From positions 21,559-85,558 of the forward strand of contig CAZVEX010000002.1 of NCBI GenBank assembly GCA_964625535.1: DNA of 64,000 nt, in the 5' to 3' direction. Shown one piece after another: positions 606-35,424 of this stretch. The position numbers and the translations under genes were made by a program. Within the stretch, counting starts at the first letter, position 1. The number at the start of each line of letters is the position of its first letter. The notes below the pieces were generated by a model that made no database searches, was not told the origin of the DNA, and saw only the letters and a program-made list of their open reading frames with translations. This DNA is from an uncultured Gammaproteobacteria bacterium (lineage in GTDB: Bacteria; Patescibacteriota; Microgenomatia; Daviesbacterales; UBA10151).

Positions 606-621
606 GTGGTATACTTTAACT

Positions 622-740
622 GTTCTTTCGGGGTTAGGTGAAAATCCTAATCGGTGGTAATACTCCACGAGTCCGACATAACGTCGGACACGATAAGGTG
701 AAAATCCTTAAGCGACCGTACAGTCGGGATGAAAGGAAGA
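622..740 (+). promoter_or_regulatory. FMN riboswitch (RFN element)
   Basis: Conserved RFN blocks are present: GGTGAAAATCC, CGGTGGTAA, GATAAGGTGAAAATCCTTA, CGACCGTACAGT and CGGGATGAAAGGAAGA. It sits directly upstream of ribE, and the 3' part overlaps the SD AAAGGAAG, which suggests translational control. Confidence 0.85.
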
Positions 741-1304
741 ATGTTTACAGGAATAATTACTAATCTTGGCAAAATTTCTCAAAAACAAGGATCTAGCTTA
801 ACAATTTCTGCTTCAAGCAAGTTTTTATCCAAACTAAAAAAGGGTACCAGTATCGCTGTCAACGGCGCTTGTCTAACAGTAGTTAATGTCCAAAAACTTA
901 CATTTACAGTTGATTTAATGCCGGAAACGATCAAGCGAACTAATATTCTTCGGGCAGAATTAGTTAATTTGGAGCTTCCAACTACCCCCCAATCATTTTT
1001 ATCCGGTCATCTTGTCCAGGGACATGTTGACGGAATGGGCAAAATAGAGAAAATTACCAGTCAAATCTTGAAAGTATCTGTTCCGTCAAATCTTGCCCAA
1101 TATCTAATTGAAAAAGGCTCTGTTGCCGTAAACGGCATTTCTTTAACAATAATCAAAGCAGAAAAAAATTATTTTACTGTCGGCATTGTCCCCTATACCT
1201 GGAACAATACCATGTTACACACCATTAAAACAGGTGATTTTATCAATATAGAAGTGGATGTACTGGCAAAGTATGTTGAAAATTTACTAAAGAAAGGAGG
1301 GTAG
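741..1304 (+). CDS. ribE: riboflavin synthase alpha subunit
   Basis: MFTGII... N-terminus with duplicated lumazine-binding halves. The ORF-track start at 729 lies inside the riboswitch; the ATG at 741 with the AAAGGAAG SD is preferred. Confidence 0.85.
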   Translation: MFTGIITNLGKISQKQGSSLTISASSKFLSKLKKGTSIAVNGACLTVVNVQKLTFTVDLMPETIKRTNILRAELVNLELPTTPQSFLSGHLVQGHVDGMGKIEKITSQILKVSVPSNLAQYLIEKGSVAVNGISLTIIKAEKNYFTVGIVPYTWNNTMLHTIKTGDFINIEVDVLAKYVENLLKKGG

Positions 1305-1307
1305 TTT

Positions 1308-1712
1308 ATGAAAAAAAATATCGCCATTGTGGCAACGTCGTTTCACAAAAAAAGCATGAAATTGATGGTAGATGATGCAAAAAAGACTGCTTTGGGGGAA
1401 AATCTGCGCGTTGCAGCAGAAGTCTGGGTGCCGGGATGTTATGAAGTGCCCTTGGCACTAAAACGCCTTTTTAGCTCAAAAAATATTGACGGGGCAGTAG
1501 TGCTTGGCATTATTGAGAAAGGGGAAACAAAACACGGTCTAATCATGGGCATGGTTGTCCATGATGCCATAGTAAGAATTGAACTGGAGACGGGAAAACC
1601 AGTAGGACTGGGAATCCTTGGACCGGAAATTCTTTTGAAACAGGTTCCTTCACGGGCAAAACTTTATGCAAAGAAATCAGTTTTGGCGCTAAAGGCAATG
1701 CTTGCAATATGA
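1308..1712 (+). CDS. ribH: 6,7-dimethyl-8-ribityllumazine synthase
   Basis: 134 aa of lumazine-synthase length and pattern (IAIVATSFHK..., GETKHG). Has a strong SD AAAGGAGGG. Confidence 0.85.
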   Translation: MKKNIAIVATSFHKKSMKLMVDDAKKTALGENLRVAAEVWVPGCYEVPLALKRLFSSKNIDGAVVLGIIEKGETKHGLIMGMVVHDAIVRIELETGKPVGLGILGPEILLKQVPSRAKLYAKKSVLALKAMLAI

Positions 1713-2290
1713 AACCGGCATCGGCAAATTTACCAACCAAATATGGCCATTTTAAGATATTTGTCTATCAATCAAAGAAAGACGGGCGTGAGCATACGGT
1801 ACTTCTCAAACAAAAAAATAAAAAAGATAAATTTCTGGTGAGAATTCATTCGCAGTGCCTGACAGGAGATACCTTTTCTTCACTGAAATGCGATTGCCGG
1901 GACCAGTTGGTAATGAGTTTAAAAAAAATCGGCAAAGCCCAAAACGGCGCCTTAATTTACCTAAATCAGGAAGGAAGAGGAATTGGATTAACCAATAAAA
2001 TCAAGGCTTATGCACTGCAGGATAGAGGTCTTGATACCATCCAAGCAAATAAAAAGCTGGGGCTTGCTGCAGATCTGCGCGATTACTCAGTGGCTGCGGA
2101 AGTTCTTAAAGACTTGGGCATTTTTCAGATTATACTTTTAACTAATAATCCTGATAAAGCTTCACAGCTTGCATCTTTTGGCATCACCGTTAAAAAGTGC
2201 ATTCCGCTGGAAGTTAGACCCAACCGGATTAATAAAAGCTATCTCAAAACCAAAAAAGAGAAAATGGGCCATAAACTAAAACTTGTTTAA
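1709..2290 (+). CDS. ribA: GTP cyclohydrolase II
   Basis: RIHSQCLTGD...CDCRDQL...EGRGIGL motifs of GTP cyclohydrolase II. No DHBP-synthase domain is present. Confidence 0.85.
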   Translation: MKPASANLPTKYGHFKIFVYQSKKDGREHTVLLKQKNKKDKFLVRIHSQCLTGDTFSSLKCDCRDQLVMSLKKIGKAQNGALIYLNQEGRGIGLTNKIKAYALQDRGLDTIQANKKLGLAADLRDYSVAAEVLKDLGIFQIILLTNNPDKASQLASFGITVKKCIPLEVRPNRINKSYLKTKKEKMGHKLKLV

Positions 2291-2295
2291 TTTGT

Positions 2296-3264
2296 ATGAA
2301 TAAAGACATTAAATTCCTCAAGGAAACTTTAAAGCTTGCCAAAAAAGGGCTGGGTTGGACCAATCCCATGGTTGGAGCAATCCTGGTTAAAGATGGCAAG
2401 ATGATAGGTAAAGGTTACCATAAAAAGGTAGGATTTCCCCATGCCGAAATCGAGGCATTAAAGAAGTGTCGGGAAAATCCAAAAGGGGCAACGCTGTATG
2501 TCAATCTTGAACCATGTGCTATTTTTGGCAGAACACCGCCTTGTGTGGATCCAATCATTAAAAGCGGTATTAAAAAAGTAGTCTATTCAACTTTAGATGC
2601 TAATCCCAAAAATCATGGCAAAGGTACAACAAAATTACAAAAAGCAGGTATTGAAACCTCATTTGGCATATTGGAAAAAGAAGCTAGAAAATTAAATGAA
2701 GCATTTTTTACATTCCATGAAAAAGGTCGGCCCTTTGTGGCCATCAAATTTGCAGCTTCTTTGGATGGAAAAATTGCGACCTATACAGGTGATTCCAAAT
2801 GGATTACCAATGAAAAGGCCAGACGCTATGCCAGAAGCTTGCGGGCAGAGTATCAGGCAGTGCTGGTGGGTATGAATACGGTGTTAAAAGATAATCCTCA
2901 TTTAGGGAATTCTTTAAGAATAATCCTTGGTTCCAAAGTCCCCAAAAATTCTCAAGTGTTACGAGATAAAAATGTTTTAATAATAAATCCCAAAAATATT
3001 AAAGATCTTTTAAATATCTTGAGAGAAAAAGAAATCGTTTCTGTATTGGTAGAGGGCGGGGGAAAAACTTTAGGGGCTTTTTGTGACTGCGGTTTAGTTG
3101 ATAAAGTTTATGCTTTTTATGCTCCAATCATTATTGGCGGCGAAAACGCAGTTAGTATTGGTGGAAAAGGAGCCTCAACTATTCATCAAGCGCTGCATTT
3201 AAAAAATATTTCCTACAAAAGATTTGATGATAATTTCCTGATCACAGGCTATACTGAAAACTAA
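2296..3264 (+). CDS. ribD: bifunctional riboflavin deaminase/reductase
   Basis: Deaminase zinc motifs HAEIEAL and PCAIFGRTPPC, plus a C-terminal RibD reductase-like domain. Confidence 0.85.
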   Translation: MNKDIKFLKETLKLAKKGLGWTNPMVGAILVKDGKMIGKGYHKKVGFPHAEIEALKKCRENPKGATLYVNLEPCAIFGRTPPCVDPIIKSGIKKVVYSTLDANPKNHGKGTTKLQKAGIETSFGILEKEARKLNEAFFTFHEKGRPFVAIKFAASLDGKIATYTGDSKWITNEKARRYARSLRAEYQAVLVGMNTVLKDNPHLGNSLRIILGSKVPKNSQVLRDKNVLIINPKNIKDLLNILREKEIVSVLVEGGGKTLGAFCDCGLVDKVYAFYAPIIIGGENAVSIGGKGASTIHQALHLKNISYKRFDDNFLITGYTEN

Positions 3265-3323
3265 TTGCTGAGCGTACCGGTTAAGACCCATTTTGTCGTT
3301 ATAGCGTTCAAAACTGGACGCCT

Positions 3324-3337
3324 CTTGATTAATCAAG
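3324..3337. repeat. perfect 14-bp palindrome CTTGATTAATCAAG in the convergent ribD/Mrr-like intergenic region
   Basis: Seen directly in the sequence; no T-run follows it. Confidence 0.4.
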
Positions 3338-3349
3338 TCTATCTAAAAC

Positions 3350-4090
3350 TTAGGTATCAAGCATATCCCAATCTTCACCAAGAACCCAGCGTAAGGTTGA
3401 TAGCTTTCCGTTAATCATGCCCCACTCAAAATCATCATGAGGTCCTAGACCCTTTTTCCCATATTTTTTCTCTACCTTCTTCGCAGCAGAAAAAGCACCT
3501 TTAAGAATATCTGGCGGTGTATCTTTACCAAGGTGACCTCCATTTTTCAACAATTGGTGCCGATCATACCAAACTTTATCGGAAAACTCTTCTTCTGCAG
3601 TAAGGATATCTTTTACATTTCTGATTGGGTCTGAGATAAGATTGTATTTCCGAAGTAGTGAAATTTTATTTTTGACCAATTTTTCTAACATCGGTCGTTC
3701 CCAGCACCTAATTTTATATGCTGGTTTATTATTTTTACAGTAATTTTCAAGATAATCTTTAGCCGGGTTAGATAAAAAGTTAGAAACAATAATGATTACT
3801 CCATCCGGTCGTTCTGCGTTTGCCCAAGAGAGAAGGTTTTGGAGTTCTTTAGGAGGTAATCCTTTCGTGTAGTGTTTACATTCAGCGAACCATGTTTCAA
3901 AGTATTTGGTACCATCAACATCCGGATATTCTCTTTGAAAAACAATATCCCTACCCCTGTCGGCAGGACTAGTTTTTAATCCTGTCCCCTTACGCCAATC
4001 GATATTGAAAAAGCCTAACTTTTGAAGCAAGTCAAAACAGAATTCTTCAAATTCAGTTGGACTAAGATTATTAAAAGAAATAGATCTCAT
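3350..4090 (-). CDS. Mrr-cat-like PD-(D/E)xK nuclease-domain protein, C-terminal half unknown
   Basis: The N-terminus (LSPTEFEEFCFDLLQKLGF...ADRGRDIVFQ...FAECKHY) matches the Mrr/restriction-endonuclease catalytic-domain pattern (D...ExK). It lies 60 nt downstream of tRNA-Gln. Confidence 0.5.
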   Translation of the reverse strand: MRSISFNNLSPTEFEEFCFDLLQKLGFFNIDWRKGTGLKTSPADRGRDIVFQREYPDVDGTKYFETWFAECKHYTKGLPPKELQNLLSWANAERPDGVIIIVSNFLSNPAKDYLENYCKNNKPAYKIRCWERPMLEKLVKNKISLLRKYNLISDPIRNVKDILTAEEEFSDKVWYDRHQLLKNGGHLGKDTPPDILKGAFSAAKKVEKKYGKKGLGPHDDFEWGMINGKLSTLRWVLGEDWDMLDT

Positions 4091-4149
4091 ATAATTAATT
4101 AGTTTTTAGAAACCATTTCAGACATCCAGGTCACTTTGGGTGCCCGTCT

Positions 4150-4223
4150 TGGCTGCGGGATTAGGAGTCGGACCTAAATTAACAGGTTCAGAGCCTGCTG
4201 TGCTACCATTACACCATCCCGCA
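4150..4223 (-). tRNA. tRNA-Gln(CTG), CCA encoded
   Basis: Hand fold: acceptor TGCGGGA/TCCCGCA, U8, D-stem GTGT/GCAC with an AATGGTA loop, anticodon stem GCAGG/CCTGT with loop CTCTGAA (anticodon CUG), T-stem TTAGG/CCTAA with loop TCCGACT, discriminator G, then CCA. Confidence 0.7.
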
Positions 4224-4547
4224 ATATTACTTTATTAACTGTTTAAAACTATTACCACCTTTATATGATTTTAATGCCTTCTCTCTTTCCCTTGCTACCT
4301 GATAACTTCTGTACTCTTCATAATGTATTATTTTAAAAGGTTTTCTTTTTCTTGTTGAATAAACCCCTCCTTTGTTATGTTGTTCCAATCGTTTTTCTAA
4401 ATTCTTACATATCCCAATATAATAGCCTTTATCTATTAAGCTTTGTATTATATATACAAATATCATGAATTCAGAGCCTGCTGTGCTACTTTACCCCGGC
4501 TTGCCCCGCTGAGCGGGGTGAACGGGGCAAGCACCATCCCGCAATAT
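4224..4547 (-). mobile_element. GIY-YIG insertion module with a duplicated tRNA-Gln 5' half (imperfect direct repeat 4187-4227 / 4470-4547)
   Basis: The tRNA 5' half (position 1 to anticodon loop CTCTGAA) is present twice. The upstream copy (4470-4543) has a 42-nt GC-rich nested hairpin replacing TAATG of the D-loop. The GIY-YIG ORF exactly fills the gap. Confidence 0.6.
4227..4466 (-). CDS. GIY-YIG nuclease family small protein (UPF0213/YhbQ-like)
   Basis: 79 aa with the N-terminal GIY-YIG pattern FVYIIQS...GYYIGICKNLEKRLEQHNKG. The ATG directly follows the anticodon loop of the duplicated tRNA half, and the TAA sits 3 nt before the tRNA-Gln 5' end. Confidence 0.8.
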   Translation of the reverse strand: MIFVYIIQSLIDKGYYIGICKNLEKRLEQHNKGGVYSTRKRKPFKIIHYEEYRSYQVAREREKALKSYKGGNSFKQLIK

Positions 4548-7520: not shown

Positions 7521-8415
7521 CATAGGTCCAGTTTATCAACAGGGTCGTTTCTCCAAAGCGGTCATCAGAACCCAGCACTACCAATAAAACTCTATGGTTA
7601 TCCCTGTCAACCAGCGTCACCAGATTTTCTTTGGCCAGAGTGGTGTACCCTGTTTTAATCCCCAAAATGCCGCTGATCTGTGAAAGAAGTTTATTTAAAT
7701 TACTTAGATGATGCGCATACTTTTTATCCAGAGAAAAAACGTCGGTTTCTTTGGTAGCAAAAATTCTGGCCAGCTGGTAATTTTTCAAAGCTTCCTCGGA
7801 CACTCTCCCAAGATCTCCGGCCGATGAAAAATGCTTTTTATCATCAAAGCCGGCCGGGTTGGTAAAATGAGTCTTGAGTAAACCAAGCTCCATGGCTTTT
7901 TTGTTCATGGCAGAAACAAAACTTAAGACTCCTCCCGGGTAATTTTCCGCAATGGTAAAGGCCGCATCATTGCCGGAATTTAAAAGCATGCCGTAAAGTA
8001 ATGACCTAAAACTTAAACTTTCTCCGCTCACCAGACCCACCTTGGCTCCCTCTATATTAGCACCATCTTTCACAGTTAAAACCGAGTTGGGTTTAAAATA
8101 TTCGCCAGCCACCAGGGCTGTGGCAATTTTGGTGGTAGAGGCAATAGGCAGGGGGATATTGGCATCTTTTTGATAAAGAACGGTATCGGTTGTTAAATCT
8201 TTGATAAACACTGCTCTGGCAGAAAATTGCGGCAGGGGCAAATTGGAAGATACCGGGGGGCTCAAGTATTTTTGCACCCCTGCCACTTGAGCATTATTTT
8301 GGGGAATTTGAAAACTAATCAATACGCTTTCTGTCGACTCAACTAGAATTGGAACTGTTATGGCAATAACTATAGCTATCAAAATTAAACCGGCAGAATA
8401 AAGATAATACCTCAT
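7498..8415 (-). CDS. D-alanyl-D-alanine carboxypeptidase (peptidase S11, PBP5-like)
   Basis: Carries the STTK (SxxK), SGN (SxN) and KTG motifs and an N-terminal signal anchor. Confidence 0.75.
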   Translation of the reverse strand: MRYYLYSAGLILIAIVIAITVPILVESTESVLISFQIPQNNAQVAGVQKYLSPPVSSNLPLPQFSARAVFIKDLTTDTVLYQKDANIPLPIASTTKIATALVAGEYFKPNSVLTVKDGANIEGAKVGLVSGESLSFRSLLYGMLLNSGNDAAFTIAENYPGGVLSFVSAMNKKAMELGLLKTHFTNPAGFDDKKHFSSAGDLGRVSEEALKNYQLARIFATKETDVFSLDKKYAHHLSNLNKLLSQISGILGIKTGYTTLAKENLVTLVDRDNHRVLLVVLGSDDRFGETTLLINWTYANFRWSD

Positions 8416-11640: not shown

Positions 11641-12432
11641 ATGGGAAATATGGCAAGGGCTATTGAACATGAAATTAAAAACTGCTCCGAAAAAGGTAGT
11701 TTTCAATCTGATAATTCAGGTTCTAATAAACATACTGATGCTATACCATTCAGTGGAAAATGGCAGAAGTTAGAAGGTGTAGGAACTACCTTCGACTCTG
11801 TAGTCACGCGACTATTTGGAAGGTGCAGGGGTGAACGAGACTCGCTTGCGCTCAAATGGAACAGAAAACCTATTGGCTCTGCAGAAGAAGTTACAAGAAC
11901 GGCGATGTTTTTAAGGAGATCAGTTCACCTGTATAGAGCAACTTTGGGAGAAGAGTTTATTGTAGGAACACAAACTGTAGTTGGTGCGAAACGAGATGGA
12001 CACAAATTGAAATATAAAGTGTATATTGTCCAGCCATATGTAGATGGTTGGAACGGGAAAACATTACCTGAGACTTTACGCTCCAACGAGTATCTGGTTG
12101 AACAGTGGAGAGTTTTATATGCTCGTTTATTCCATCTTTATAATGTTGCTCGTGCAGTAAATTTGCGAGTTCCCCCCGATGGATCCTTCTTACCCTTCCC
12201 GATTACTTTAACAGTAGGTGCTTCAAGACAAAGAGCACTGGGAGGACAACAATGCGAAGAGTTGATCCCGAGAACTCCAAATCTCTTAATCGCTAGACGA
12301 GACATGCGAATTAGTCTTTGTGATTTTGGAGCATACACTACTTGGCAAGAAGGTATGAAACCAACATACAGACAGATTTTGGAAAGTACTCAACAGAATC
12401 ATTATCGAGATAATTTTATCTTAGTAGCTTAG
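11641..12432 (+). CDS. protein-kinase-like fold protein (DFG motif, atypical catalytic loop)
   Basis: Hinge-like VYIVQPYVDGWNG, catalytic-loop-like IPRTPNLLIARRD (no HRD) and ISLCDFG. Confidence 0.35.
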   Translation: MGNMARAIEHEIKNCSEKGSFQSDNSGSNKHTDAIPFSGKWQKLEGVGTTFDSVVTRLFGRCRGERDSLALKWNRKPIGSAEEVTRTAMFLRRSVHLYRATLGEEFIVGTQTVVGAKRDGHKLKYKVYIVQPYVDGWNGKTLPETLRSNEYLVEQWRVLYARLFHLYNVARAVNLRVPPDGSFLPFPITLTVGASRQRALGGQQCEELIPRTPNLLIARRDMRISLCDFGAYTTWQEGMKPTYRQILESTQQNHYRDNFILVA

Positions 12433-12466
12433 CATAACTTAGCTCAAGATATTGAAAGGAGAAATA

Positions 12467-12553
12467 ATGGAAAGGGTAGAAGCTAGACCAGAAACCTATG
12501 TTTACGGAGTTCATACTGATATACCAAATGATTACGGAAAAGGGGGTGAATAA
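12467..12553 (+). CDS. possible 28-aa peptide ORF (MERVEARPETYVYGVHTDIPNDYGKGGE)
   Basis: SD AAAGGAG sits 6 nt before the ATG. It is below the ORF-track length cut-off. Confidence 0.2.
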   Translation: MERVEARPETYVYGVHTDIPNDYGKGGE

Positions 12554-14133: not shown

Positions 14134-15483
14134 ATGACTTGGGGGTACAATTACATCATGAATTATACACTACCTAAGGAGGTAAAAAACATTTTAAATA
14201 AATTTACTAAAGCCGGTTTCCAAGTCTACATTGTGGGCGGGGCTGTTAGAGATTTGTTAATGAAGAAAAAAGTATCTGATTGGGACTTTACTACAGATGC
14301 CAAACCGGAAGAAATCTTAAAACTTTTTCCGGAGGGTTTTTATGATAATAAATTTGGGACAGTAGGGCTACCGGTAGATGGTGAGGTGTACGAGATTACA
14401 ACCATGCGCAAGGAGGGCAAATATGCTGATTTTCGCCATCCCAGTAATGTAGTCTGGACCAATAAAATTGAAGAGGATTTGGCAAGAAGGGATTTTACAG
14501 TCAATGCCATGGCATTGGGCGATAAGCTGGTTGATCCATTCAATGGTCAGGATGATATCAGAAACAAAATAATTCGCGCGGTTGGAGATCCCAACCAAAG
14601 ATTCAATGAAGATGCTCTTCGTCTAATCCGAGCTATCAGAATTGTCACAGAACTGGAATTTGATGTAGAAAATGATACATTTGAAGCTTTAAAGAAAAAC
14701 GCTCGTCTTATTAAGCAAGTTTCATGGGAAAGAATCCGCGATGAACTCCTCAAACTGCTTGCATCTATGTATGGATACATAGGTACATTGAAATTGAGGG
14801 AGGCGGGGATACTGCAAATTATTTTACCGGAACTTGAAAAATGCTTTGGGATAGTCCAAGAAGGACCAAAACATGACCGGATTTATGACATCGGGGAACA
14901 CTCCTTTTTAACCCTTAAGTTGTGTCCGTCAAAGGACCCATTAGTCCGCTTGGCTGCTCTCCTTCATGATATCGGTAAGGTAGAAACTGTGGCCACCCAA
15001 CAAGACGGCAATGTTACTTTTTATAACCATGACGTTGTCGGAGGTACTATTGTCCTAAAAATTGCCAGAAGATTTAATTTGTCTAAAAAACAAACTGATA
15101 AATTATTCAGGCTGGTTAGATGGCACCTTTTTACTGTTGATGAAAATCAGACCGATTCTGCCATCAGGCGATTTATAAAAAATGTGGGGGTGGAAAATGT
15201 TGATGACATGATGGATGTTCGTATTGGAGACAGATTGGGCGGAGGTACTCAAAGAGCCGTTTCCTGGAGAATGGAAAAATTCAAAGAAAGAATTAAAGAA
15301 GTCCTCAAAAAACCATTTTCCATTTCTGATCTCAAAATTAATGGCAATGATGTGATGAAAGTTTTGAAATTAAAACCAGGACCAAAGGTGGGAGAAGTTC
15401 TACAAAAATTATTTGAAGAAGTCCTGGAAGATTCTTCGAAGAATAATAAAAAATATCTTCTAGAAAGAATCAAACAGGTCTAG
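14134..15483 (+). CDS. cca: CCA-adding tRNA nucleotidyltransferase with HD domain
   Basis: PolyA-polymerase head domain (VGGAVRDLLM, DWDF) and HD domain (LHDIGK). Confidence 0.8.
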   Translation: MTWGYNYIMNYTLPKEVKNILNKFTKAGFQVYIVGGAVRDLLMKKKVSDWDFTTDAKPEEILKLFPEGFYDNKFGTVGLPVDGEVYEITTMRKEGKYADFRHPSNVVWTNKIEEDLARRDFTVNAMALGDKLVDPFNGQDDIRNKIIRAVGDPNQRFNEDALRLIRAIRIVTELEFDVENDTFEALKKNARLIKQVSWERIRDELLKLLASMYGYIGTLKLREAGILQIILPELEKCFGIVQEGPKHDRIYDIGEHSFLTLKLCPSKDPLVRLAALLHDIGKVETVATQQDGNVTFYNHDVVGGTIVLKIARRFNLSKKQTDKLFRLVRWHLFTVDENQTDSAIRRFIKNVGVENVDDMMDVRIGDRLGGGTQRAVSWRMEKFKERIKEVLKKPFSISDLKINGNDVMKVLKLKPGPKVGEVLQKLFEEVLEDSSKNNKKYLLERIKQV

Positions 15484-21816: not shown

Positions 21817-22172
21817 GCCTAGGAAGAAGGATGATTAGTCCGACGGAATGTCGGACAGGAAAGTCCAGACAGCAAAGAGCAGGGTGGTCCGTGTAAGCGG
21901 ACGGTCGCAAGACCCAGTTAGAGCAACAGTGACGATTCGGGTGGCGCCGAGTGAAACGACCAAGCTACCGGGTATTTGTTTCGTAGAGCCGTAAGGGGTT
22001 TATCCTGAAGAATTGAAGGGTTTACCCTGAGCGAGTAAACGAGTCGAAGGGCAATCCTCCCCGCTGCAATCCTAGATATGACTTGGGCTGCTCGCCCAAA
22101 AGTCTAAGTAAGGAGCATTAGATAAATTATCATCTCGCAACAGAATCTGGCTTACTAGCTTCCTAGGCACCA
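21817..22172 (+). ncRNA. rnpB: RNase P RNA, bacterial type A-like
   Basis: P1 pairs GCCTAGGAAG (21817-21826) with CTTCCTAGGC (22159-22168). The conserved GGAAAGTCCAGAC...AGCAGGGTGG block and ACAGAATCTGGCTTAC near the 3' end are present. Confidence 0.8.
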
Positions 22173-26456: not shown

Positions 26457-27654
26457 AAATCCTAAAAAAATTTTGATGCTAATTTTAGTACTAACGGCCT
26501 TTCTCCGTTTATACCGATTAGATTATCCCAATCAATATATCTTTGATGAAGTTTATCATGCCTTTACGGCCCAGGAATATCTAAAAGGCAACAAGGATGC
26601 TTGGGAGTGGCGGACTACCCCACCCCCGGGTGTAGCTTTCGAATGGACTCACCCGCCTCTGGCTAAAGAAATCATGACTGCTTCTATGTTTTTGCTCCGC
26701 AGTACAGACGCCTGGGTCTGGAGATTGCCGGGGGCACTTTTAGGAGTATTGTCCGTTTTTCTAGTATATAAACTGGGCCTGAAACTTTTTCAGAACAATA
26801 TTTCGGCAACGCTGGCAGCTTTTTTGTTTTCCATTGACGGCTTAAATTTTGTTCAATCTCGAATCGGAATGAATGATATATATTTCGTCACCTTTTTCCT
26901 TATAAGTTTATTATTTTTGTTAAATAAGAAAATTTTTTTTTCCGCCATTTTTTGCGGTCTGGCCATATCCAGTAAGTGGGCGGCAATTTATGGCTATATT
27001 TTTTTATTTGTCCCCTATCTGCTACTGAAAAAACAGTATTTAAATCTGATATTATTAACCGGCATTCTACCTATCATTTATCTTGCAACTTACCTACCCT
27101 TCTTTTTGCTTGGCCACCGCTTCGATCAATTTGTGCAACTGCAACAACAAATGTGGTGGTATCATACCGGCCTTAAAGCTACTCATGACTACTCATCCCC
27201 CTGGTGGAGCTGGTCTTTAAACTTTTATCCTGTCTGGTATTTTGTGGATTATAAAGATAAATTTATTGCCAATATTTTTGCCTCTGGTAACCCTCCTCTT
27301 TTTTGGTTTGGTGCTCTAGCCATACTGGCAACCGGCTGGGAAGCCATCAAACAAAAGTCTTTAAACTTGTTTTTAATTTTAATGGGTTTTTTGGTGTTTT
27401 GGCTGCCTTGGGCCGTCTCTCCCCGGATCATGTTTTTATATCACTATGCTCCATCAGTTCCGTTTTTAACTTTGGCTTTGGGTTATCAACTGGGATCAAG
27501 ATTCCAAGGTAAAATGAGAAGTAAAATTTTGCTTCTTTTGAGTATCATGGTTTTGGGCTTTATTTTGATTTATCCATTTTTGACAGGAATACATATTCCC
27601 AATTTTTTTGTCCGATTTTTTTTCTTTACCAACTTGACTAAAAACCCCTTTTAA
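26383..27654 (+). CDS. PMT_2-family glycosyltransferase (dolichyl/undecaprenyl-phosphate-sugar : protein/glycan transferase-like)
   Basis: YIFDEVYHAFTAQEY and WTHPPLAK motifs typical of the GT39/GT83 PMT_2 family, followed by a multi-TM body. Confidence 0.55.
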   Translation: MYHFLDLYYYTYIILAMLKRILSLKNPKKILMLILVLTAFLRLYRLDYPNQYIFDEVYHAFTAQEYLKGNKDAWEWRTTPPPGVAFEWTHPPLAKEIMTASMFLLRSTDAWVWRLPGALLGVLSVFLVYKLGLKLFQNNISATLAAFLFSIDGLNFVQSRIGMNDIYFVTFFLISLLFLLNKKIFFSAIFCGLAISSKWAAIYGYIFLFVPYLLLKKQYLNLILLTGILPIIYLATYLPFFLLGHRFDQFVQLQQQMWWYHTGLKATHDYSSPWWSWSLNFYPVWYFVDYKDKFIANIFASGNPPLFWFGALAILATGWEAIKQKSLNLFLILMGFLVFWLPWAVSPRIMFLYHYAPSVPFLTLALGYQLGSRFQGKMRSKILLLLSIMVLGFILIYPFLTGIHIPNFFVRFFFFTNLTKNPF

Positions 27655-28445
27655 CTGGAAGCGGAGGAGTACTGTCTTAAACTTAAGTTCCACACCCTTA
27701 AAGATAAATAAAGTAGAACGAGAGCAAAAATTACGGAATAAGCGATTAGCGCAGGAGACAACAAACCCAATAAAGATTTGGCCGGAAAACTCATCATGAT
27801 TCCTACTGGTATGATAAATGTCAGAAAACCTCTTAAGGGTTCACTGTAAATATCAATGGGGAAGCGCCCCATCCCCACAATATCGCGATACATCATAATG
27901 GCATGATCTATCTCTGTGGTGACAACGGCCAAGCTTAAAACTAAAATATGAAAAGAAAGAGCAATCAGAAGTGAAGCGCCAATAAGCAGGATGTACAATA
28001 AAACGCTGGAAACGGTACCAATATTTAATCTGATCATTAAAAATATAATGGCTCCCAGAAGGGGCAGTAAAGTTAAAAAATCAATCAGGTCCGGACCACC
28101 AAAAAGAGCTCTAAACAAAGCATTAATTGGCTTGACCAGATAGAAGTCAAAAGTCCCCATCACTACTGTCTGTCTAAAGCGATAAACCTCTCTAAAGGTC
28201 AGTTGGGATAAAATATCCACCAGGTTAAAACTTAAAAAAAAGAAGATTGTTTGATCTAAATTATATCCTGCTAAAATTTTTGTTTGTTTTACCAAAATAA
28301 CCATAAAAGCGCCGAAGACAAAAAATCTAAGCAGTTTCCCGATCAGAAAAATGGCCATGGCAAAGCGGGCCTGGGTTTGAGTTTGAAAACCGTTAATGGC
28401 AAATCTAAGCCATACATAAAAATATTTTTTTATATTAATAACCAT
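27651..28445 (-). CDS. ABC-2 type transporter permease
   Basis: Six-TM ABC-2 permease pattern, in an operon with the ATPase at 29509-30435. Confidence 0.5.
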   Translation of the reverse strand: MVINIKKYFYVWLRFAINGFQTQTQARFAMAIFLIGKLLRFFVFGAFMVILVKQTKILAGYNLDQTIFFFLSFNLVDILSQLTFREVYRFRQTVVMGTFDFYLVKPINALFRALFGGPDLIDFLTLLPLLGAIIFLMIRLNIGTVSSVLLYILLIGASLLIALSFHILVLSLAVVTTEIDHAIMMYRDIVGMGRFPIDIYSEPLRGFLTFIIPVGIMMSFPAKSLLGLLSPALIAYSVIFALVLLYLSLRVWNLSLRQYSSASS

Positions 28446-29232
28446 AAGCGCTGTATCTTCTTAAACCTGATTTTAAAACTGCCAACATCAGAAGCCAAGA
28501 CGCCACTACCCAAAAAGATAAAACAGTAAATCCTGCAACTATACTATTCAGCGGTAGAGTACCAAGATAGATTTTGGCGGGAAAATAAATAAAGTAGGGA
28601 AAAGGTGTCAGCATTAAAATATTACTGACTGTTTTGGGCAGTATATCGATGGGAAAAAGTCCCCCTCCAAATCCTTCCAAAAGTATCATCACTAAAAAAA
28701 GCGGTCCCCAGGCATTTTCCACCCAAAAGGCCAACATGCCTATGATAAAAGCAAAAGCAAAATAGAGTATTAACCCTAAGACCGTGGCGAGAAAAAACAA
28801 AGTTAAAATTCCAGGATCCTGTTGAAATTGGAGAGGCGGTTGCAAAAGTACCAAAAGCAGGGTTATTTCAAAAATAACAAAGGCAATATTGAGGAGTTTA
28901 TCGGCCAAGTCCCGGGCAAAATAATATTTAATAAAGCCCAAGGGTTTGACCAAGAAATTAACTATGCTGCCTTCATTAATCTGCCCTGCCACATCAATGA
29001 CTCTGGAGGATAAAATGATGGCCCTGATAAGAGCGGACACTATGATATAAGTTAAAATTTGGGCTTGACTGTAATTAAACACGCTAATGTTGGATTGAAA
29101 AACCGTCCACCAGATAAAGTAAACCAGCAGGAGCTGCAAAGCTGATCTCACTCTCCAAAGAAGAAAATTTAATCTATAAACCAAGCCTTGTTCCCAAGAA
29201 ATTTTAAAAACTGCCAGGTATTTGTTGATCAT
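28435..29232 (-). CDS. ABC-2 type transporter permease
   Basis: Six-TM ABC-2 permease pattern, paralogous to its neighbour. Confidence 0.5.
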   Translation of the reverse strand: MINKYLAVFKISWEQGLVYRLNFLLWRVRSALQLLLVYFIWWTVFQSNISVFNYSQAQILTYIIVSALIRAIILSSRVIDVAGQINEGSIVNFLVKPLGFIKYYFARDLADKLLNIAFVIFEITLLLVLLQPPLQFQQDPGILTLFFLATVLGLILYFAFAFIIGMLAFWVENAWGPLFLVMILLEGFGGGLFPIDILPKTVSNILMLTPFPYFIYFPAKIYLGTLPLNSIVAGFTVLSFWVVASWLLMLAVLKSGLRRYSAYGY

Positions 29233-29492
29233 GTAGCTTTACCAAAAATCCAGGGAGTCTGGGTCCTGATAACTTTTTTAGGAGGACGCTGCTCCATCAT
29301 TTTGGCAACACGAATCACCGTATCCGTACCTACATTAACTTTTTCCGCCACTTTTCTGACTGTCAACCCTTCCTGTAAAAGATTCCTGATCCGATATCGA
29401 TTTTTCAACATTCTCATCTCCGAAGATGTGAGCAACGATCTTAAAATATCATCCGGTATATTAATATTGGTATTTATTTTAGGTTTGCTCAT
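29229..29492 (-). CDS. TrpR-like DNA-binding protein (YerC/YecD family)
   Basis: MSKPKINTNINIPDDILRSLLTSSEMRMLKNRYRIRNLLQEGLTVRKVAE...GTDTVIRV matches the YerC/YecD signature. The ATG at 29492 is preferred over the TTG at 29549. Confidence 0.55.
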   Translation of the reverse strand: MSKPKINTNINIPDDILRSLLTSSEMRMLKNRYRIRNLLQEGLTVRKVAEKVNVGTDTVIRVAKMMEQRPPKKVIRTQTPWIFGKAT

Positions 29493-29508
29493 ATGTATCC
29501 ATACATAA

Positions 29509-30435
29509 TCATACACCCTTTTGAAAAATCTGTCGAATAATATCTTCAATTGGCGGATCTTCTATGGTCAAATCCGCTACTTTAAACTTTGACAGAAGTT
29601 CCCTGGTTTTCTCTGCCACCTCATTTTTACCGACCTGAATTTCCATGTAATTTCCCGAATATTCTTTTACCTTAATCACTTTGAAGGGGGCAAATTTATT
29701 AACTATTTCTTCCAAAAGACCATCATATAAAATCTTCCCCTGATCAATAACAATCACTCTTTTGCAAAGTTCTTTTACATCAGCCATGTAATGAGAAGTC
29801 AAAATTATCGTGGCTTTACCCTGTTCATTATATTCTTTGATAAAATCCCGCATGGTTTTTTGAGCCACAATGTCCAAACCGATGGTCGGCTCATCCAAAA
29901 ATAACACTTTGGGGCTGTGTAGTAAGGAAGCTACCAACTCGCATTTCATCCGCTGACCCAAAGACAACTTCCGGACTTGAACTTTTAAGAGATCTTCAAT
30001 TTCCAGCATTTTGGTTAGTTTAGCCACGCTTTCCTCAAATTGTTTTTGAGGGATTTCATAAATTTCTTTATTGAGAATAAAACTTTCCCAGGCAGGCAAA
30101 TCCCACCACAGTTGGTTTTTTTGCCCCATCACTAAACTAAACTTTTTTTGAAACTCACTTTGTCTTTTAAACGGCTCAAATCCTAACACCTGTACTTGCC
30201 CTGATGTGGGGAATAACAGTCCTGATAAAACCTTGAGGGTGGTAGTTTTACCGGCTCCATTTGGGCCGATAAAACCCACTAATTCACCTTCTTGAATTCC
30301 AAAAGAAACCCCATTAACCGCCTTAACGTCATAGTGCTGGCGGACAAAAAGAGATTTGATAGATCCCCAAAGTCCGGGTTCTTTCTGATAAACACGGTAA
30401 TATTTTTTTAAATTTTTAACAGAAATAATATTCAC
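29509..30435 (-). CDS. ABC transporter ATP-binding protein
   Basis: Walker A GPNGAGKTT, signature LSLGQRMK and Walker B LFLDEPT. Confidence 0.85.
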   Translation of the reverse strand: MNIISVKNLKKYYRVYQKEPGLWGSIKSLFVRQHYDVKAVNGVSFGIQEGELVGFIGPNGAGKTTTLKVLSGLLFPTSGQVQVLGFEPFKRQSEFQKKFSLVMGQKNQLWWDLPAWESFILNKEIYEIPQKQFEESVAKLTKMLEIEDLLKVQVRKLSLGQRMKCELVASLLHSPKVLFLDEPTIGLDIVAQKTMRDFIKEYNEQGKATIILTSHYMADVKELCKRVIVIDQGKILYDGLLEEIVNKFAPFKVIKVKEYSGNYMEIQVGKNEVAEKTRELLSKFKVADLTIEDPPIEDIIRQIFQKGV

Positions 30436-32222: not shown

Positions 32223-32681
32223 TTACCTGTTTTTTAAAAAATTATCAACTACTACTTTTGCCACTTCATACTCAAACCCTTTTCTCATTAAAAAATCCGT
32301 AGCTTTTTTCCTAAACTCCAAGGCTTCTAAATTTTTCCATACTTTTTCTTTTTTCTCCAGTGCTTTTTCCGCAATTTGCGTTTCACTAACAGCTAATAGC
32401 TGATAGCTGACGACTTGCTCTATTATTTCTTTATTGATGCCTTTCTGCCAAAGCTCCAACCTTAGCGCCTTGACTCCCTTTTGTTTTGACCTTCTTCGCG
32501 ACTCAACCCATTCTTTGGCAAACTTTTCGTCATTCATCAAGCCTTGCTCTTTTAACTTTTCTATGATTTCACCACTATTTTCACTTTTCCCTTTTAAATA
32601 ATCCCTGATTTCTTTTTCCGAACGGTCGCGAAAAGATAACAATCTATAAACTTTCTGCAACAGTTTTTCAGTAGGGGACAT
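32223..32681 (-). CDS. recX: regulatory protein RecX
   Basis: 152-aa helical-repeat protein immediately downstream of recA. Confidence 0.7.
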   Translation of the reverse strand: MSPTEKLLQKVYRLLSFRDRSEKEIRDYLKGKSENSGEIIEKLKEQGLMNDEKFAKEWVESRRRSKQKGVKALRLELWQKGINKEIIEQVVSYQLLAVSETQIAEKALEKKEKVWKNLEALEFRKKATDFLMRKGFEYEVAKVVVDNFLKNR

Positions 32682-33743
32682 TTAAGTCACTTCTTCAACT
32701 TGAGATTCTTCTTCTCCCACCACCATGTGTTCCTTGCCTTCTTTTTCTTTTCCCCAAGCATCTCTTACTTCTTTTTCCAAATTTTGCGCTTCTTTGGGAT
32801 TTTCCTTTAAATATAAAATAGCTGCCTGCCTGCCCTGGCCTAAAATTACCTCTTCTTTTTTGATAAAAGCTCCGCTCTTTTGCAAAATCCCCAATTCTAT
32901 CCCTACATCCAGCAGCTCTCCTGCTTTGGAAATGCCCCGATCATCCATATCAAATTCGGCAATGCGGAATGGGGGAGCCACTTTATTTTTCACCACCTTC
33001 ACCCGATGCCTTGAACCCACTACCAAATCTCCTTCTTTGAGATTTTCAATTTTGCGGATATCCAGACGGATGGAGGCATAAAATTTTAAAGCCATACCCC
33101 CAGTAGTAGTTTCGGGATTACCAAACATCACTCCGATTTTTTGGCGCAGCTGATTGGTAAAAATCACCACGGTTTTGGTATTGGCAATGGCAGCTGTTAG
33201 CTTTCTAAGCGCTTGCGACATGAGCCGGGCCTGCATACCCATGACAGAATCTCCCATCTCTCCTTCAATTTCTGCCCGGGGAACTAAAGCTGCCACCGAA
33301 TCTATCACCACCACGTCAATGCCACCGGAGCGGATTAAAGCTTCGGCAATTTCCAGGGCTTGTTCCCCTGTATCCGGCTGGGAAATTAACAGATCATCCA
33401 GATTAACCCCGATTTTTTGGGCTCTTTGAGGGTCCAGAGCATGCTCGGCATCAATAAAAGCTGCTACCCCACCTCTTTTTTGGGCCTCGGCAATAACATG
33501 CAGTGTCACAGTAGTTTTACCAGAAGCTTCCGGACCATAAATTTCTATCACCCGTCCCTTTGGCAAACCGCCAATCCCCAGAGCTAAATCCAAAGCAATG
33601 GAGCCGGTAGGAATAACATCTGCTGTTAGCTTTTCCACCCTCTCACCTAAACGCATGATGGAACCTGTGCCGTATTGTTTTTGAATGCCCGCAATAGCGG
33701 CCGCAATAGCAGCTTTCTTAGCTTCGTCATTATTGGTGGCCAT
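32682..33743 (-). CDS. recA: recombinase RecA
   Basis: GPEASGKTT Walker A; L1/L2 loops are present. Confidence 0.95.
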
Positions 33744-33833
33744 ATTTTGATTAAACCAGACTTGTTTTTATTTTGCAATACTCCAAATTACTCTCATGTA
33801 TTGATGTATGGATACATAAATACGTAGGTTCGG

Positions 33834-33905
33834 TCGGGGATGAGAGAATTGAACTCTCTGCTTCTCGGACCCCATCCGAGCGGTCTACCGATGACCTAAT
33901 CCCCG
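33834..33905 (-). tRNA. tRNA-Pro(GGG)
   Basis: Hand fold: acceptor CGGGGAT/ATCCCCG, D-stem GGTC/GACC, anticodon stem CTCGG/CCGAG with loop ATGGGGT, T-stem GAGAG/CTCTC with loop TTCAATT, discriminator A. Confidence 0.75.
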
Positions 33906-34251: not shown

Positions 34252-35306
34252 GCGGCTGTAGGAAGATAAATTGGCCGCTGCAGGTCCAATCCTTGCAAAA
34301 TTCCCTCCACCGATGTATCCAAAATCTCCTTCATAAAATCTTTAATGACTTTCGCGCTTTTTCTTCCGGTGCCAAACGTTTCCACCTCCTGCATAGTGGG
34401 CTTTTTTGCTCCTATACAATAAGCCAGTCTGACCTCTACTTTATCCGCCAGTCTTTGCGCCACAATATTTTTGGCCAAAAATCGGGCTGCATATGCCCCG
34501 CCCCGATCCACTTTTGACGGCTCCTTGCCGGAAAAACACCCCCCGCCGACCCGGGCATATCCGCCGTAAGTATCAACCACAATTTTTCGACCTGTTAAAC
34601 CGCAGTCGGATGCCGGACCGCCGTTGTGCCAGACGCCTGTGCCGTTGACGATCAAATTGCGGCTTTTGATTTTAAAACCGAAGCTTTCCAAAACCGGCCT
34701 TACCACCTCCTTAAAAATATCTCTTTTAACTTGAGGAAGAGGAACCGATTCCTGATGGGGCGCGGCAATCACCACTTGTCTAACACCAATAGGTTTACCA
34801 TGGTGATACTCCACTGTCACTTGAGATTTTCCGTCCGGGCGAAGATAAGGTAAGATTCCCTGTTCCCGAACAAAATCAATTCTTCTCACCAAAGAGTGAG
34901 CGATCATGATGGGAAGAGGCATCAGCTCCGGGGTTTCCCTGCAGGCAAAACCAAACATCATCCCCTGATCACCCGCCCCTTTTTTTTTGACTCCGATGGC
35001 GATTTCCGGCGATTGCTGATGAACAAAAACTTCAATGGGTGATTGATAACTAAACCTAAACCGCGAGTCGGTGTACCCTAATCTTTTGATTTGCTGCCTG
35101 GCCACTTTTTCAAAGTTCACTTTGGCTTTGCTGCCAATTTCTCCGGCAATAATCAGCCGCTGCTCCCCTGCCAGACATTCAATGGCTGTCCGACCCTTGG
35201 GATCTTGAGCTAATACCTCATCCAAAATGGCATCGGAAATCTGATCGCAAATTTTATCAGGGTGTCCGCTACAAACAGATTCAGAAGTAAAAGTTGTTTT
35301 TGTCAT
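34203..35306 (-). CDS. metK: S-adenosylmethionine synthetase
   Basis: SESVCSGHPDKICDQISDAILD, GAGDQG and GGGAFSGKD-like motifs. Confidence 0.9.
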   Translation of the reverse strand: MTKTTFTSESVCSGHPDKICDQISDAILDEVLAQDPKGRTAIECLAGEQRLIIAGEIGSKAKVNFEKVARQQIKRLGYTDSRFRFSYQSPIEVFVHQQSPEIAIGVKKKGAGDQGMMFGFACRETPELMPLPIMIAHSLVRRIDFVREQGILPYLRPDGKSQVTVEYHHGKPIGVRQVVIAAPHQESVPLPQVKRDIFKEVVRPVLESFGFKIKSRNLIVNGTGVWHNGGPASDCGLTGRKIVVDTYGGYARVGGGCFSGKEPSKVDRGGAYAARFLAKNIVAQRLADKVEVRLAYCIGAKKPTMQEVETFGTGRKSAKVIKDFMKEILDTSVEGILQGLDLQRPIYLPTAAYGHFGREEFPWEKVV

Positions 35307-35313
35307 AATGACC

Positions 35314-35398
35314 GCATCTCACAACTACGAAAATTGTGGTTGGCACCGTCAAACTTTAACGGTTGTCGGTCCGACAGTACGTCGGACTCTCTTGATGC
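35314..35398 (-). promoter_or_regulatory. structured metK 5' leader: four-way junction (P1 GCAUC/GAUGC enclosing three hairpins), candidate SAM-responsive riboswitch
   Basis: On the minus-strand RNA: P2 GUCCGAC-GUACU-GUCGGAC, P3 ACCGU-UAAAGUUUG-ACGGU, P4 CACAA-UUUUCGUAG-UUGUG. The P1 3' strand ends 8 nt before the metK AUG. AUCAAGAGAG resembles the SAM-I P1/J1-2 sequence. Confidence 0.3.
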
Positions 35399-35424
35399 AA
35401 TCTTATTAAATCACAAATTATTTG

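Follow-up and report, generated by a model that had tools for sequence, protein, structure and literature searches.

A 14-bp palindrome upstream of recA and at a TrpR-like gene in Daviesbacteria, a predicted TrpR-family operator

Why does one 14-bp palindrome occur, letter for letter, upstream of recA, at the start codon of a small TrpR-like gene and inside two genes of tRNA maturation? A first-pass annotation of this DNA had reported four copies of the motif in the window (the whole 64,000-nt stretch analysed here) and had read them either as a LexA-like or TrpR-like operator or as a DNA-level signal, such as an uptake sequence, a restriction or methylation site or a homing-nuclease target. 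An exact search of the window confirmed the four copies at their coordinates (Table 1). Three read ATGTATGGATACAT on the plus strand, and the fourth, at the TrpR-like gene, reads ATGTATCCATACAT on that strand, i.e., ATGTATGGATACAT on the minus strand. The DNA derives from a Candidatus Daviesbacteria (CPR/Patescibacteria) MAG, and its recA maps to contig JACPUM010000003.1 (339 kb) of GCA_016192235.1. The gene context is also as the annotation had described it, since gene and domain annotation places the copies in cca, in miaA, in the gap between tRNA-Pro and recA, and at the TrpR-like start. Of the interpretations offered, the operator of a TrpR-like protein gained support from the comparisons described below, while the LexA/SOS box and the DNA-level signals did not.

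Four copies in the window and their distribution across Daviesbacteria

No further copy was found in the window at one or two mismatches; in this count, the reverse complement of each site itself scores as a two-mismatch hit. Dinucleotide-preserving shuffles give an expectation of 0.39 hits at two or fewer mismatches, and the observed count was reached in 0 of 100 shuffles, which upholds the earlier claim that four copies lie far beyond chance. Copies with three mismatches occur at background level. The 10-mer core GTATGGATAC is confined to the same four sites, while half-motifs occur at background frequency, and neither other arm spacings (N0, N1, N3, N4) nor degenerate family members were found in the window. 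The four copies fall within 19 kb. At three of them (sites 1, 2 and 4) the core lies within an imperfect palindrome of about 26 bp, GTATyN-ATGTAT-GG-ATACAT-Nr-ATAC, whose arms are complementary at 10-11 of 12 positions; the flanks of the four sites have no extended homology beyond the site. The FMN riboswitch, SAM-I/IV riboswitch and RNase P RNA of the window, each detected at the Rfam gathering level, are ordinary known elements and are listed in Table 1 with the other features.

Table 1. Coordinates of the sites, genes and other elements in the window
Feature	Position	Strand	Remarks
FMN riboswitch	620-744	+	ahead of riboflavin operon (729-3264)
Mrr_cat restriction-endonuclease-domain gene	3350-4090	-	beside tRNA-Gln
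cca, listed ORF	14134-15483	+	
14-bp core site in cca	14767-14780	+	in frame, M-Y-G-Y
RNase P RNA	21819-22170	+	
miaA	23121-24116	-	
14-bp core site in miaA	23542-23555	+	in frame, M-Y-P-Y
14-nt tandem repeat in 5' part of miaA	23918-23956		TTTTCAATTTTAAA-like
Two ABC-2 permease genes (PF06182)	27651-29232	-	directly downstream of TrpR-like gene
87-aa TrpR-family (PF01371) protein HYZ06_01820	29229-29492	-	candidate cognate regulator
C-terminal tail T-P-W-I-F-G-K of this protein	29238-29258	-	residues 79-85
14-bp core site at TrpR-like gene	29493-29506	-	reads ATGTATGGATACAT in gene direction; abuts TrpR-like ATG (29492)
Promoter-like pair TCGACA-17-TATGAT	29508-29536	-	consensus scan, 10/12 matches
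recX	32223-32681		downstream of recA
recA	32682-33743	-	TIGR02012, 6.5e-150; putative regulated gene
Putative recA promoter	33750-33778	-	TTGCAA (33778-33773), 17-nt spacer, TTTAAT (33755-33750)
Third hexamer CA-ATACAT	33796-33803	-	promoter-proximal side of recA core
14-bp core site upstream of recA	33804-33817	+	reads ATGTATCCATACAT in recA direction; about -74 to -61 (A of ATG = +1)
tRNA-Pro	33832-33905	-	
SAM-I/IV riboswitch	35286-35403	-	ahead of metK

How far does the motif extend beyond the window? Loci were fetched via homologues of the 87-aa TrpR-like protein, and one further locus, L012, came from a scan of a genome collection with the bare 14-mer. The resulting comparison set comprises eight Daviesbacteria genomes with the 87-aa TrpR-like gene (PF01371) and 202,722 bases. 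L012, a Daviesbacteria recA site, was among the matches listed in that scan, and the other listed matches are single chance hits. Homologues of the 87-aa protein fall into 98 clusters, and each cluster that bears a source name is from Daviesbacteria. Within the 202,722 bases, 18 copies with at most one mismatch were found, all at four orthologous places: the TrpR-like start codon, upstream of the recA -35 hexamer, inside miaA and inside cca. The motif is not a dispersed repeat.

As a control set, 80 related loci with no TrpR-like gene within 10 kb were found via RNase Y in a metagenome scan; they contain 0 copies in 1,023,362 bases. The six closest RNase Y relatives (78-82% identity) lack the motif even at two mismatches, they also lack the TrpR-like and ABC genes beside rny, and upstream of recA no palindrome occupies the equivalent position. 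Its absence from these closest relatives had first led us to regard the motif as a species-specific oddity, an idea that was dropped after the TrpR-like-bearing loci were compared. On the 1.02-Mb contig L123, a near-complete genome, the motif is missing before recA, in the MiaA linker and in the CCA peptide. This contig carries none of the 98 TrpR-like clusters, since no cluster's contig reaches 1,023,025 bp. A search of viral contigs with the longer pattern gave one match, consistent with chance. Phylogeny confounds the co-occurrence of gene and motif: the genomes that bear the TrpR-like gene may represent one clade that shares another regulator too. L131 (21 kb), which is without the TrpR-like gene and the motif, has three copies of a 13-mer, TCCGATACTCCGA, built as a direct repeat of TCCGA, which could be another lineage-specific site.

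Over 19 sites, the arms are near-invariant while the flanks diverge. All 19 have GG or CC at the centre, in either orientation relative to the gene, and the arm changes that do occur (ATGAAT, ATACGT, AAACAT, ATACAC) are never compensated in the opposite arm. The uncompensated changes and the GG or CC centre in either orientation argue for a site in double-stranded DNA that is read by a symmetric protein rather than for an RNA structure.

Sites at two predicted promoters

At the TrpR-like gene, the site lies in a gap of 16 nt that separates the stop codon of an ABC ATPase gene from the ATG of the 87-aa PF01371 gene. The promoter-like pair TCGACA-17-TATGAT ends 1 nt before the motif in the window, and its -10 hexamer shares bases with the stop codon of the ABC ATPase gene. 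L208, L209, L210 and L211 have a like arrangement, in which a TTGACT/TTGACA-17-TAnnAT pair precedes a motif that starts in or right after the -10 and adjoins or overlaps the start codon (MSKPK…); the promoters are consensus-based predictions. The site is exact in the window, L208, L210 and L211 and has one mismatch in L204, L206 and L209, so that seven of the eight genomes carry it with at most one mismatch. The eighth, L012, has a degenerate site, ACCTATGGATATAT, at its TrpR-like gene versus an exact one at recA. At least nine further homologues have mis-called N-terminal extensions, MYGY, MYPY or VYDVSIR ahead of MSKP, which are the translated motif, and several more encode variants with one or two mismatches. 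The predicted -10 lies only 12-13 nt before the TrpR-like ATG, which would imply a near-leaderless mRNA.

The recA motif ends 60 nt before the recA ATG, in the gap between tRNA-Pro and recA. Together with the third hexamer, its core makes up a 22-bp composite, ATGTAT-CC-ATACAT-nn-ATACAT, with an 8-bp period that spans about -74 to -53 relative to the A of the ATG (+1). The flank nnATACA is present in five of six recA sites (it is AAACA in L209) and lies always on the same side when the CC centre is used to orient the core; L012 has the entire composite the other way round with respect to recA. All six genomes for which the upstream region is at hand have the site (the window, L204, L209, L210, L211 and L012), five of them exactly and L209 with one mismatch. 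In each, it lies 24-25 nt upstream of the -35 hexamer, and the intervening sequence is unrelated. This promoter was read from the sequence and from an alignment of the orthologous upstream regions; the consensus scan omitted it because the -10 has no A at position 2. Since the -10 is only 6 nt before the ATG (33743) in the window (6-9 nt in orthologues), a leaderless recA mRNA is implied. Neither recA nor the TrpR-like gene has a Shine-Dalgarno sequence, and -10-like hexamers stand 6-13 nt before the ATG (window 33744-33755 and 29493-29513, and the orthologous loci), a pattern that would imply leaderless or near-leaderless recA and TrpR-like mRNAs in these Daviesbacteria. A site centred near -67 is unusual for a plain repressor. 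Class-I-type activation would fit this position, as would interference at the UP-element region.

Several other features were seen around recA. A near-invariant block, GGGTATTGACCTTTGGGwAATATTTGGT, lies about 60 nt upstream of recA in L123, L125, L126, L131, L210 and L211 and is missing in the window, L204, L209 and L012. It takes in the spacer between -35 and -10, and the conservation of this spacer suggests a second, different recA operator. In L209, a large serine recombinase gene and an HTH_17 gene (2352-4454) are directly upstream of recA, and the recA-site motif falls within the 3' end of the former, an arrangement that suggests an integrated element. The recA gene of L210 (2582-4987) contains an intein with a LAGLIDADG domain and encodes a product of 801 aa. 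In L123, a partial duplicate of the 3' end of tRNA-Pro (TTCTCCCCTCCCCGAC twice, about 8010-8110) lies between tRNA-Pro and recA and looks like an integration scar.

Is the palindrome the operator of some other regulator, either a divergent LexA/SOS box or a site for a lineage-specific factor, with the TrpR-like gene as a mere regulon member beside recA? The presence of the site upstream of recA in six of six genomes speaks for this possibility, recA being the classic SOS target, and the TGTAT/ATACA arms resemble those of the E. coli SOS box consensus. Like LexA boxes, it is a high-information palindrome conserved across related genomes, and a clade effect, in genomes that are each seen in part, could explain why it accompanies the TrpR-like gene. 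However, TGTAT-N2-ATACA differs in sequence and spacing from every LexA box compared: CTGT-N8-ACAG, GAAC-N4-GTTC and the Bacteroidetes boxes GGA-N5-TCC and CTAA-N5-TTAG. GAAC-N4-GTTC has one chance match in the window and none at recA. At recA, the site precedes the -35 instead of covering the promoter, and the position that is conserved most consistently, with the best-conserved copy, is the TrpR-like gene's own promoter, a hallmark of autoregulation. Moreover, no LexA/S24 domain was found among the Pfam-annotated genes in about 170 kb of loci, and no lexA gene was seen in the readable DNA, which for the source genome amounts to about 72 kb. We therefore regard a LexA-type or other separate regulator as unlikely, and the SOS box proposed in the first-pass annotation found no positive support. 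To our knowledge, none of the DnaA-box, Fur, NrdR, CopY/BlaI and IHF consensus sequences fits the 14-mer.

The TrpR-like protein as candidate binder

Which protein could read the site? The 87-aa protein encoded next to it matches the PF01371 profile with 42.2 bits (gathering score 27, E 8.6e-11). The NCBIfam TrpR and YerC equivalog models remain below their cutoffs (YerC/YecD, 21 bits versus a cutoff of 42), and the protein is thus a member of the PF01371 family that belongs to neither named subfamily. An AF2 monomer model has four helices and a mean pLDDT of 82.6. Foldseek ranks 1-20 in the PDB are all TrpR or TrpR-like structures (1tro, 3kor, 3g1c, 3frw and 1trr among them), with TMq values of about 0.52-0.55 and a probability of about 1; the E-values are weak because the domain is small. 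Of these, 1tro is a complex of TrpR with its operator, and 1trr is a complex with tandem binding. The turn and recognition helix (V54-G-T-D-T-V59, R61) do not vary across 46 homologues with 46-86% identity to the window protein, a constancy that matches that of the operator. E. coli Gly85 appears to align with Val62 of the 87-aa protein in a manual alignment. The C-terminal tail T-P-W-I-F-G-K is predicted to be disordered and is invariant in 46 of 46 aligned homologues; it might bind a partner or serve as a built-in ligand. The order of the TrpR-like and ABC-2 permease genes is the same in L206, L208 and L210, and the permease genes are probably co-transcribed with the TrpR-like gene.

How does this pair compare with known members of the family? 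E. coli TrpR, with operators at trpEDCBA, aroH and trpR, is likewise a small all-helical helix-turn-helix protein of PF01371, and TrpR is the best structural match of the window protein. The two systems have in common a palindromic operator with TGTA...TACA arms and a site at the regulator's own promoter. TrpR-family operators in general are palindromes with such arms, and the regulator's own site often precedes its gene (PMC9413887). The extra half-sites on an 8-bp period in the window recall tandem binding of TrpR dimers (1trr; half-sites in PMC9413887). There are also differences. The TrpR and HisR palindromes are described as 20-bp, and the family consensus has GNACT-type half-sites 8 bp apart (PMC9413887). 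In contrast, the operator proposed here has a 14-bp core, TGTAT-N2-ATACA, whose arms are 2 bp apart, versus the 20-bp TGTAcTnGTnnACnAgTACA of E. coli TrpR. No GNACT-type 20-bp palindrome is present at these sites, which have only the TGTA/TACA arm letters in common with the family consensus (PMC9413887). The targets are apparently recA and the ABC-2 transporter operon rather than the aromatic amino-acid genes of E. coli TrpR, and the window protein, at 87 aa, is shorter than its E. coli counterpart and ends in the invariant tail. HisR (YerC) of Firmicutes, the histidine repressor of the TrpR family, offers another parallel, as a find of comparative genomics with lineage-specific palindromes, frequent autoregulation and a link to a transporter operon (PMC9413887). 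The HisR motif (cacTTTAnnnnnnTAAAgtg, 20 bp) and its regulon of histidine biosynthesis and uptake are unlike the window system. No trp or his genes adjoin the sites, which belong to recA, the regulator's own operon with its ABC-2 permeases, miaA and cca.

Taken together, these results suggest that the 14-mer is probably an operator, in double-stranded DNA, through which the TrpR-like regulator would repress its own gene and control recA. The earlier proposal of a TrpR-like operator thus gains ground from a motif that, in every genome examined that bears the gene, is conserved at the TrpR-like promoter and keeps a constant distance to that of recA, and that is missing in relatives without the gene beside rny. 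Our inference of the binder draws on where the sites lie, how well they are conserved and how they accompany the gene, and on the protein's family and fold. A dimer of the TrpR-like protein would bind the inverted arms ATGTAT/ATACAT of the 14-bp core. At its own gene, where the site begins right after the -10 (in the window) or overlaps its last bases and fills the stretch to the start codon, the bound protein would block RNA polymerase and thereby repress the regulator's own gene together with the two ABC-2 permease genes. At recA, binding to the core and the third hexamer, upstream of the -35, would modulate transcription of recA and recX. The copies in miaA and cca would be further high-affinity sites that are kept at the DNA level and may serve as auxiliary operators, roadblocks or titration sites.

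Operator-like copies inside miaA and cca

Why would an operator be kept within coding sequence? In miaA, the site sits in a hypervariable linker that is unalignable among homologues. At the orthologous position, the motif is exact in L209, has one mismatch in L210 (ATGAATCCATACAT) and has two in L208 (ATGAATCCATACAC). The peptide M(Y/N)(P/G)Y occurs at this spot in 13 of 103 anchored homologues from the best 120 MiaA homologues, and MYGY and MNGY versions with a flipped centre are among these 13. In cca, the ancestral peptide is xNPY(I/M), and among the 26 top-ranked hits seven have MYGY and four MYPY. The replacement of the conserved Asn by Tyr makes the palindrome perfect, and Gly and Pro alternate exactly with the GG/CC flip of its centre; the orthologous cca site in L212 (GCA_016183225.1) is ATGTATCCATACAT, versus ATGTATGGATACAT in the window. 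Both intragenic copies are in frame, with no length change relative to orthologues. The change from xNPY to MYPY or MYGY together with the centre flip indicates that the DNA motif dictates the peptide rather than the other way round. The first-pass annotation had allowed that the intragenic copies might simply reflect a common MYGY or MYPY peptide; the comparison turns this around, in that the peptides are derived and either replace xNPY or sit in the hypervariable MiaA linker. Template switching within the small palindrome is a plausible mutational route.

The intragenic sites have no obvious regulatory target. Intragenic auxiliary operators are familiar from lac O2 in lacZ and gal OI in galE, which the exact copies inside coding sequence here resemble. 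The distances here are 0.9-6 kb, versus about 100-400 bp for lac O2 and gal OI, and here the coding sequence is altered to carry the site. As to the genes themselves, the listed start of cca is probably too early (database protein, 441 aa versus 449), and the tandem repeat in the 5' part of miaA codes for an insertion rich in Lys (FKIENLKLKIKK) that differs between orthologues. L212, which derives from the same MAG as L204, carries a longer PF01371 paralogue of 150 aa just downstream of cca (12045-12497). It shares its locus with genes of the chorismate and prephenate pathway, the window has no counterpart there, and it may be a more conventional amino-acid regulator.

Could the motif be a signal at the DNA level, i.e., an uptake sequence, a chromosome-organisation site of the parS or Noc type, or a target of restriction or methylation? 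Its copies are exact, two of them are intragenic, four fall within 19 kb, and CPR bacteria are thought to depend on DNA uptake. Signals of this kind do not explain why all 18 copies in about 203 kb are at four orthologous positions and none elsewhere, or why the spacing to promoter hexamers is fixed. Uptake sequences (DUS/USS) occur in hundreds to thousands of scattered copies, about one per kb, while the motif has a density of about one per 11 kb in a sample that was chosen around the sites. The 14-mer also shows no similarity to the parS consensus, TGTTNCACGTGAAACA, and no ParB protein or parB gene is among the annotated genes of the window. We consider a DNA-level role very unlikely, and the uptake, restriction-methylation or homing-target option raised previously finds no support in copies that are not scattered.

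A crossover site for a serine recombinase, with a layout like that of hix, gix or res, or the remnant of a REP- or MITE-like mobile palindrome is likewise very unlikely. Crossover sites of this kind have 26 bp with 12-bp inverted arms around an asymmetric central dinucleotide, three of the window sites are imperfect palindromes of about 26 bp around GG, the centre flips between genomes, the helix-turn-helix of the TrpR-like protein weakly resembles that of the Bin3 invertase, and L209 has its large serine recombinase gene beside recA. Yet no recombinase gene is consistently nearby, and the order and orientation of recA, the TrpR-like gene and miaA are constant despite sites that are mutually inverted, with no inversion products seen. 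A mobile palindrome is at odds with intragenic copies that lie in frame without insertion relative to orthologues and with the unrelated flanks. An RNA hairpin acting in translation or processing, or a by-product of a shared peptide, is very unlikely too. In favour of such a reading, the motif abuts a start codon and could adopt a small stem-loop, folding of the longer sites exceeds that of shuffled sequences (z -2.3 to -2.9), and both intragenic copies are in frame. Against it, the recA copy is located ahead of the promoter of that gene, shuffled sequences fold as well as the own-gene site does (z +0.57), predicted hairpins are weak, no arm mismatch has a compensating change, and Rfam has no hit at the sites. 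The peptides are also derived, with xNPY turned into MYPY or MYGY in CCA and an island in an unalignable linker in MiaA, and Gly and Pro follow the centre flip.

Returning to the proposed operator of the TrpR-like regulator, what would such a system mean for these bacteria? In the literature searched, the 14-mer does not occur, and TrpR-like regulators of Daviesbacteria are not the subject of any paper. What appears to be new here is a predicted pair of TrpR-family regulator and operator, with a compact operator and a putative regulon that includes recA. A more far-reaching scenario, which we put forward as speculation and think rather improbable as a whole, is that a minimal TrpR-family protein took over the control of recA in a Daviesbacteria lineage, instead of LexA or in its absence. 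Its small regulon would tie an ABC-2 transporter and two tRNA-maturation genes to recombination and repair, and selection on its operators as DNA would be strong enough to rewrite conserved residues (NPY to MYPY or MYGY in the CCA-adding enzyme). The TPWIFGK tail, as a built-in ligand or a motif for binding a partner, could replace free tryptophan as corepressor.

Almost nothing is known about transcriptional regulation in CPR bacteria (Patescibacteria), which cannot be grown alone, and the candidate regulator-operator pair described here, with about 25 bits of information, is directly testable. It would link recA to a protein of the TrpR family, which has so far been tied to tryptophan and histidine metabolism. 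It would also provide a first handle on the control of recombination and repair in reduced genomes and a defined DNA-protein pair for heterologous assays. The copies embedded in coding sequence, in which Gly and Pro alternate with the 2-bp centre, would be a clear example from nature of protein sequence yielding to a binding site, an effect that matters when 'odd' substitutions in conserved enzymes are interpreted.
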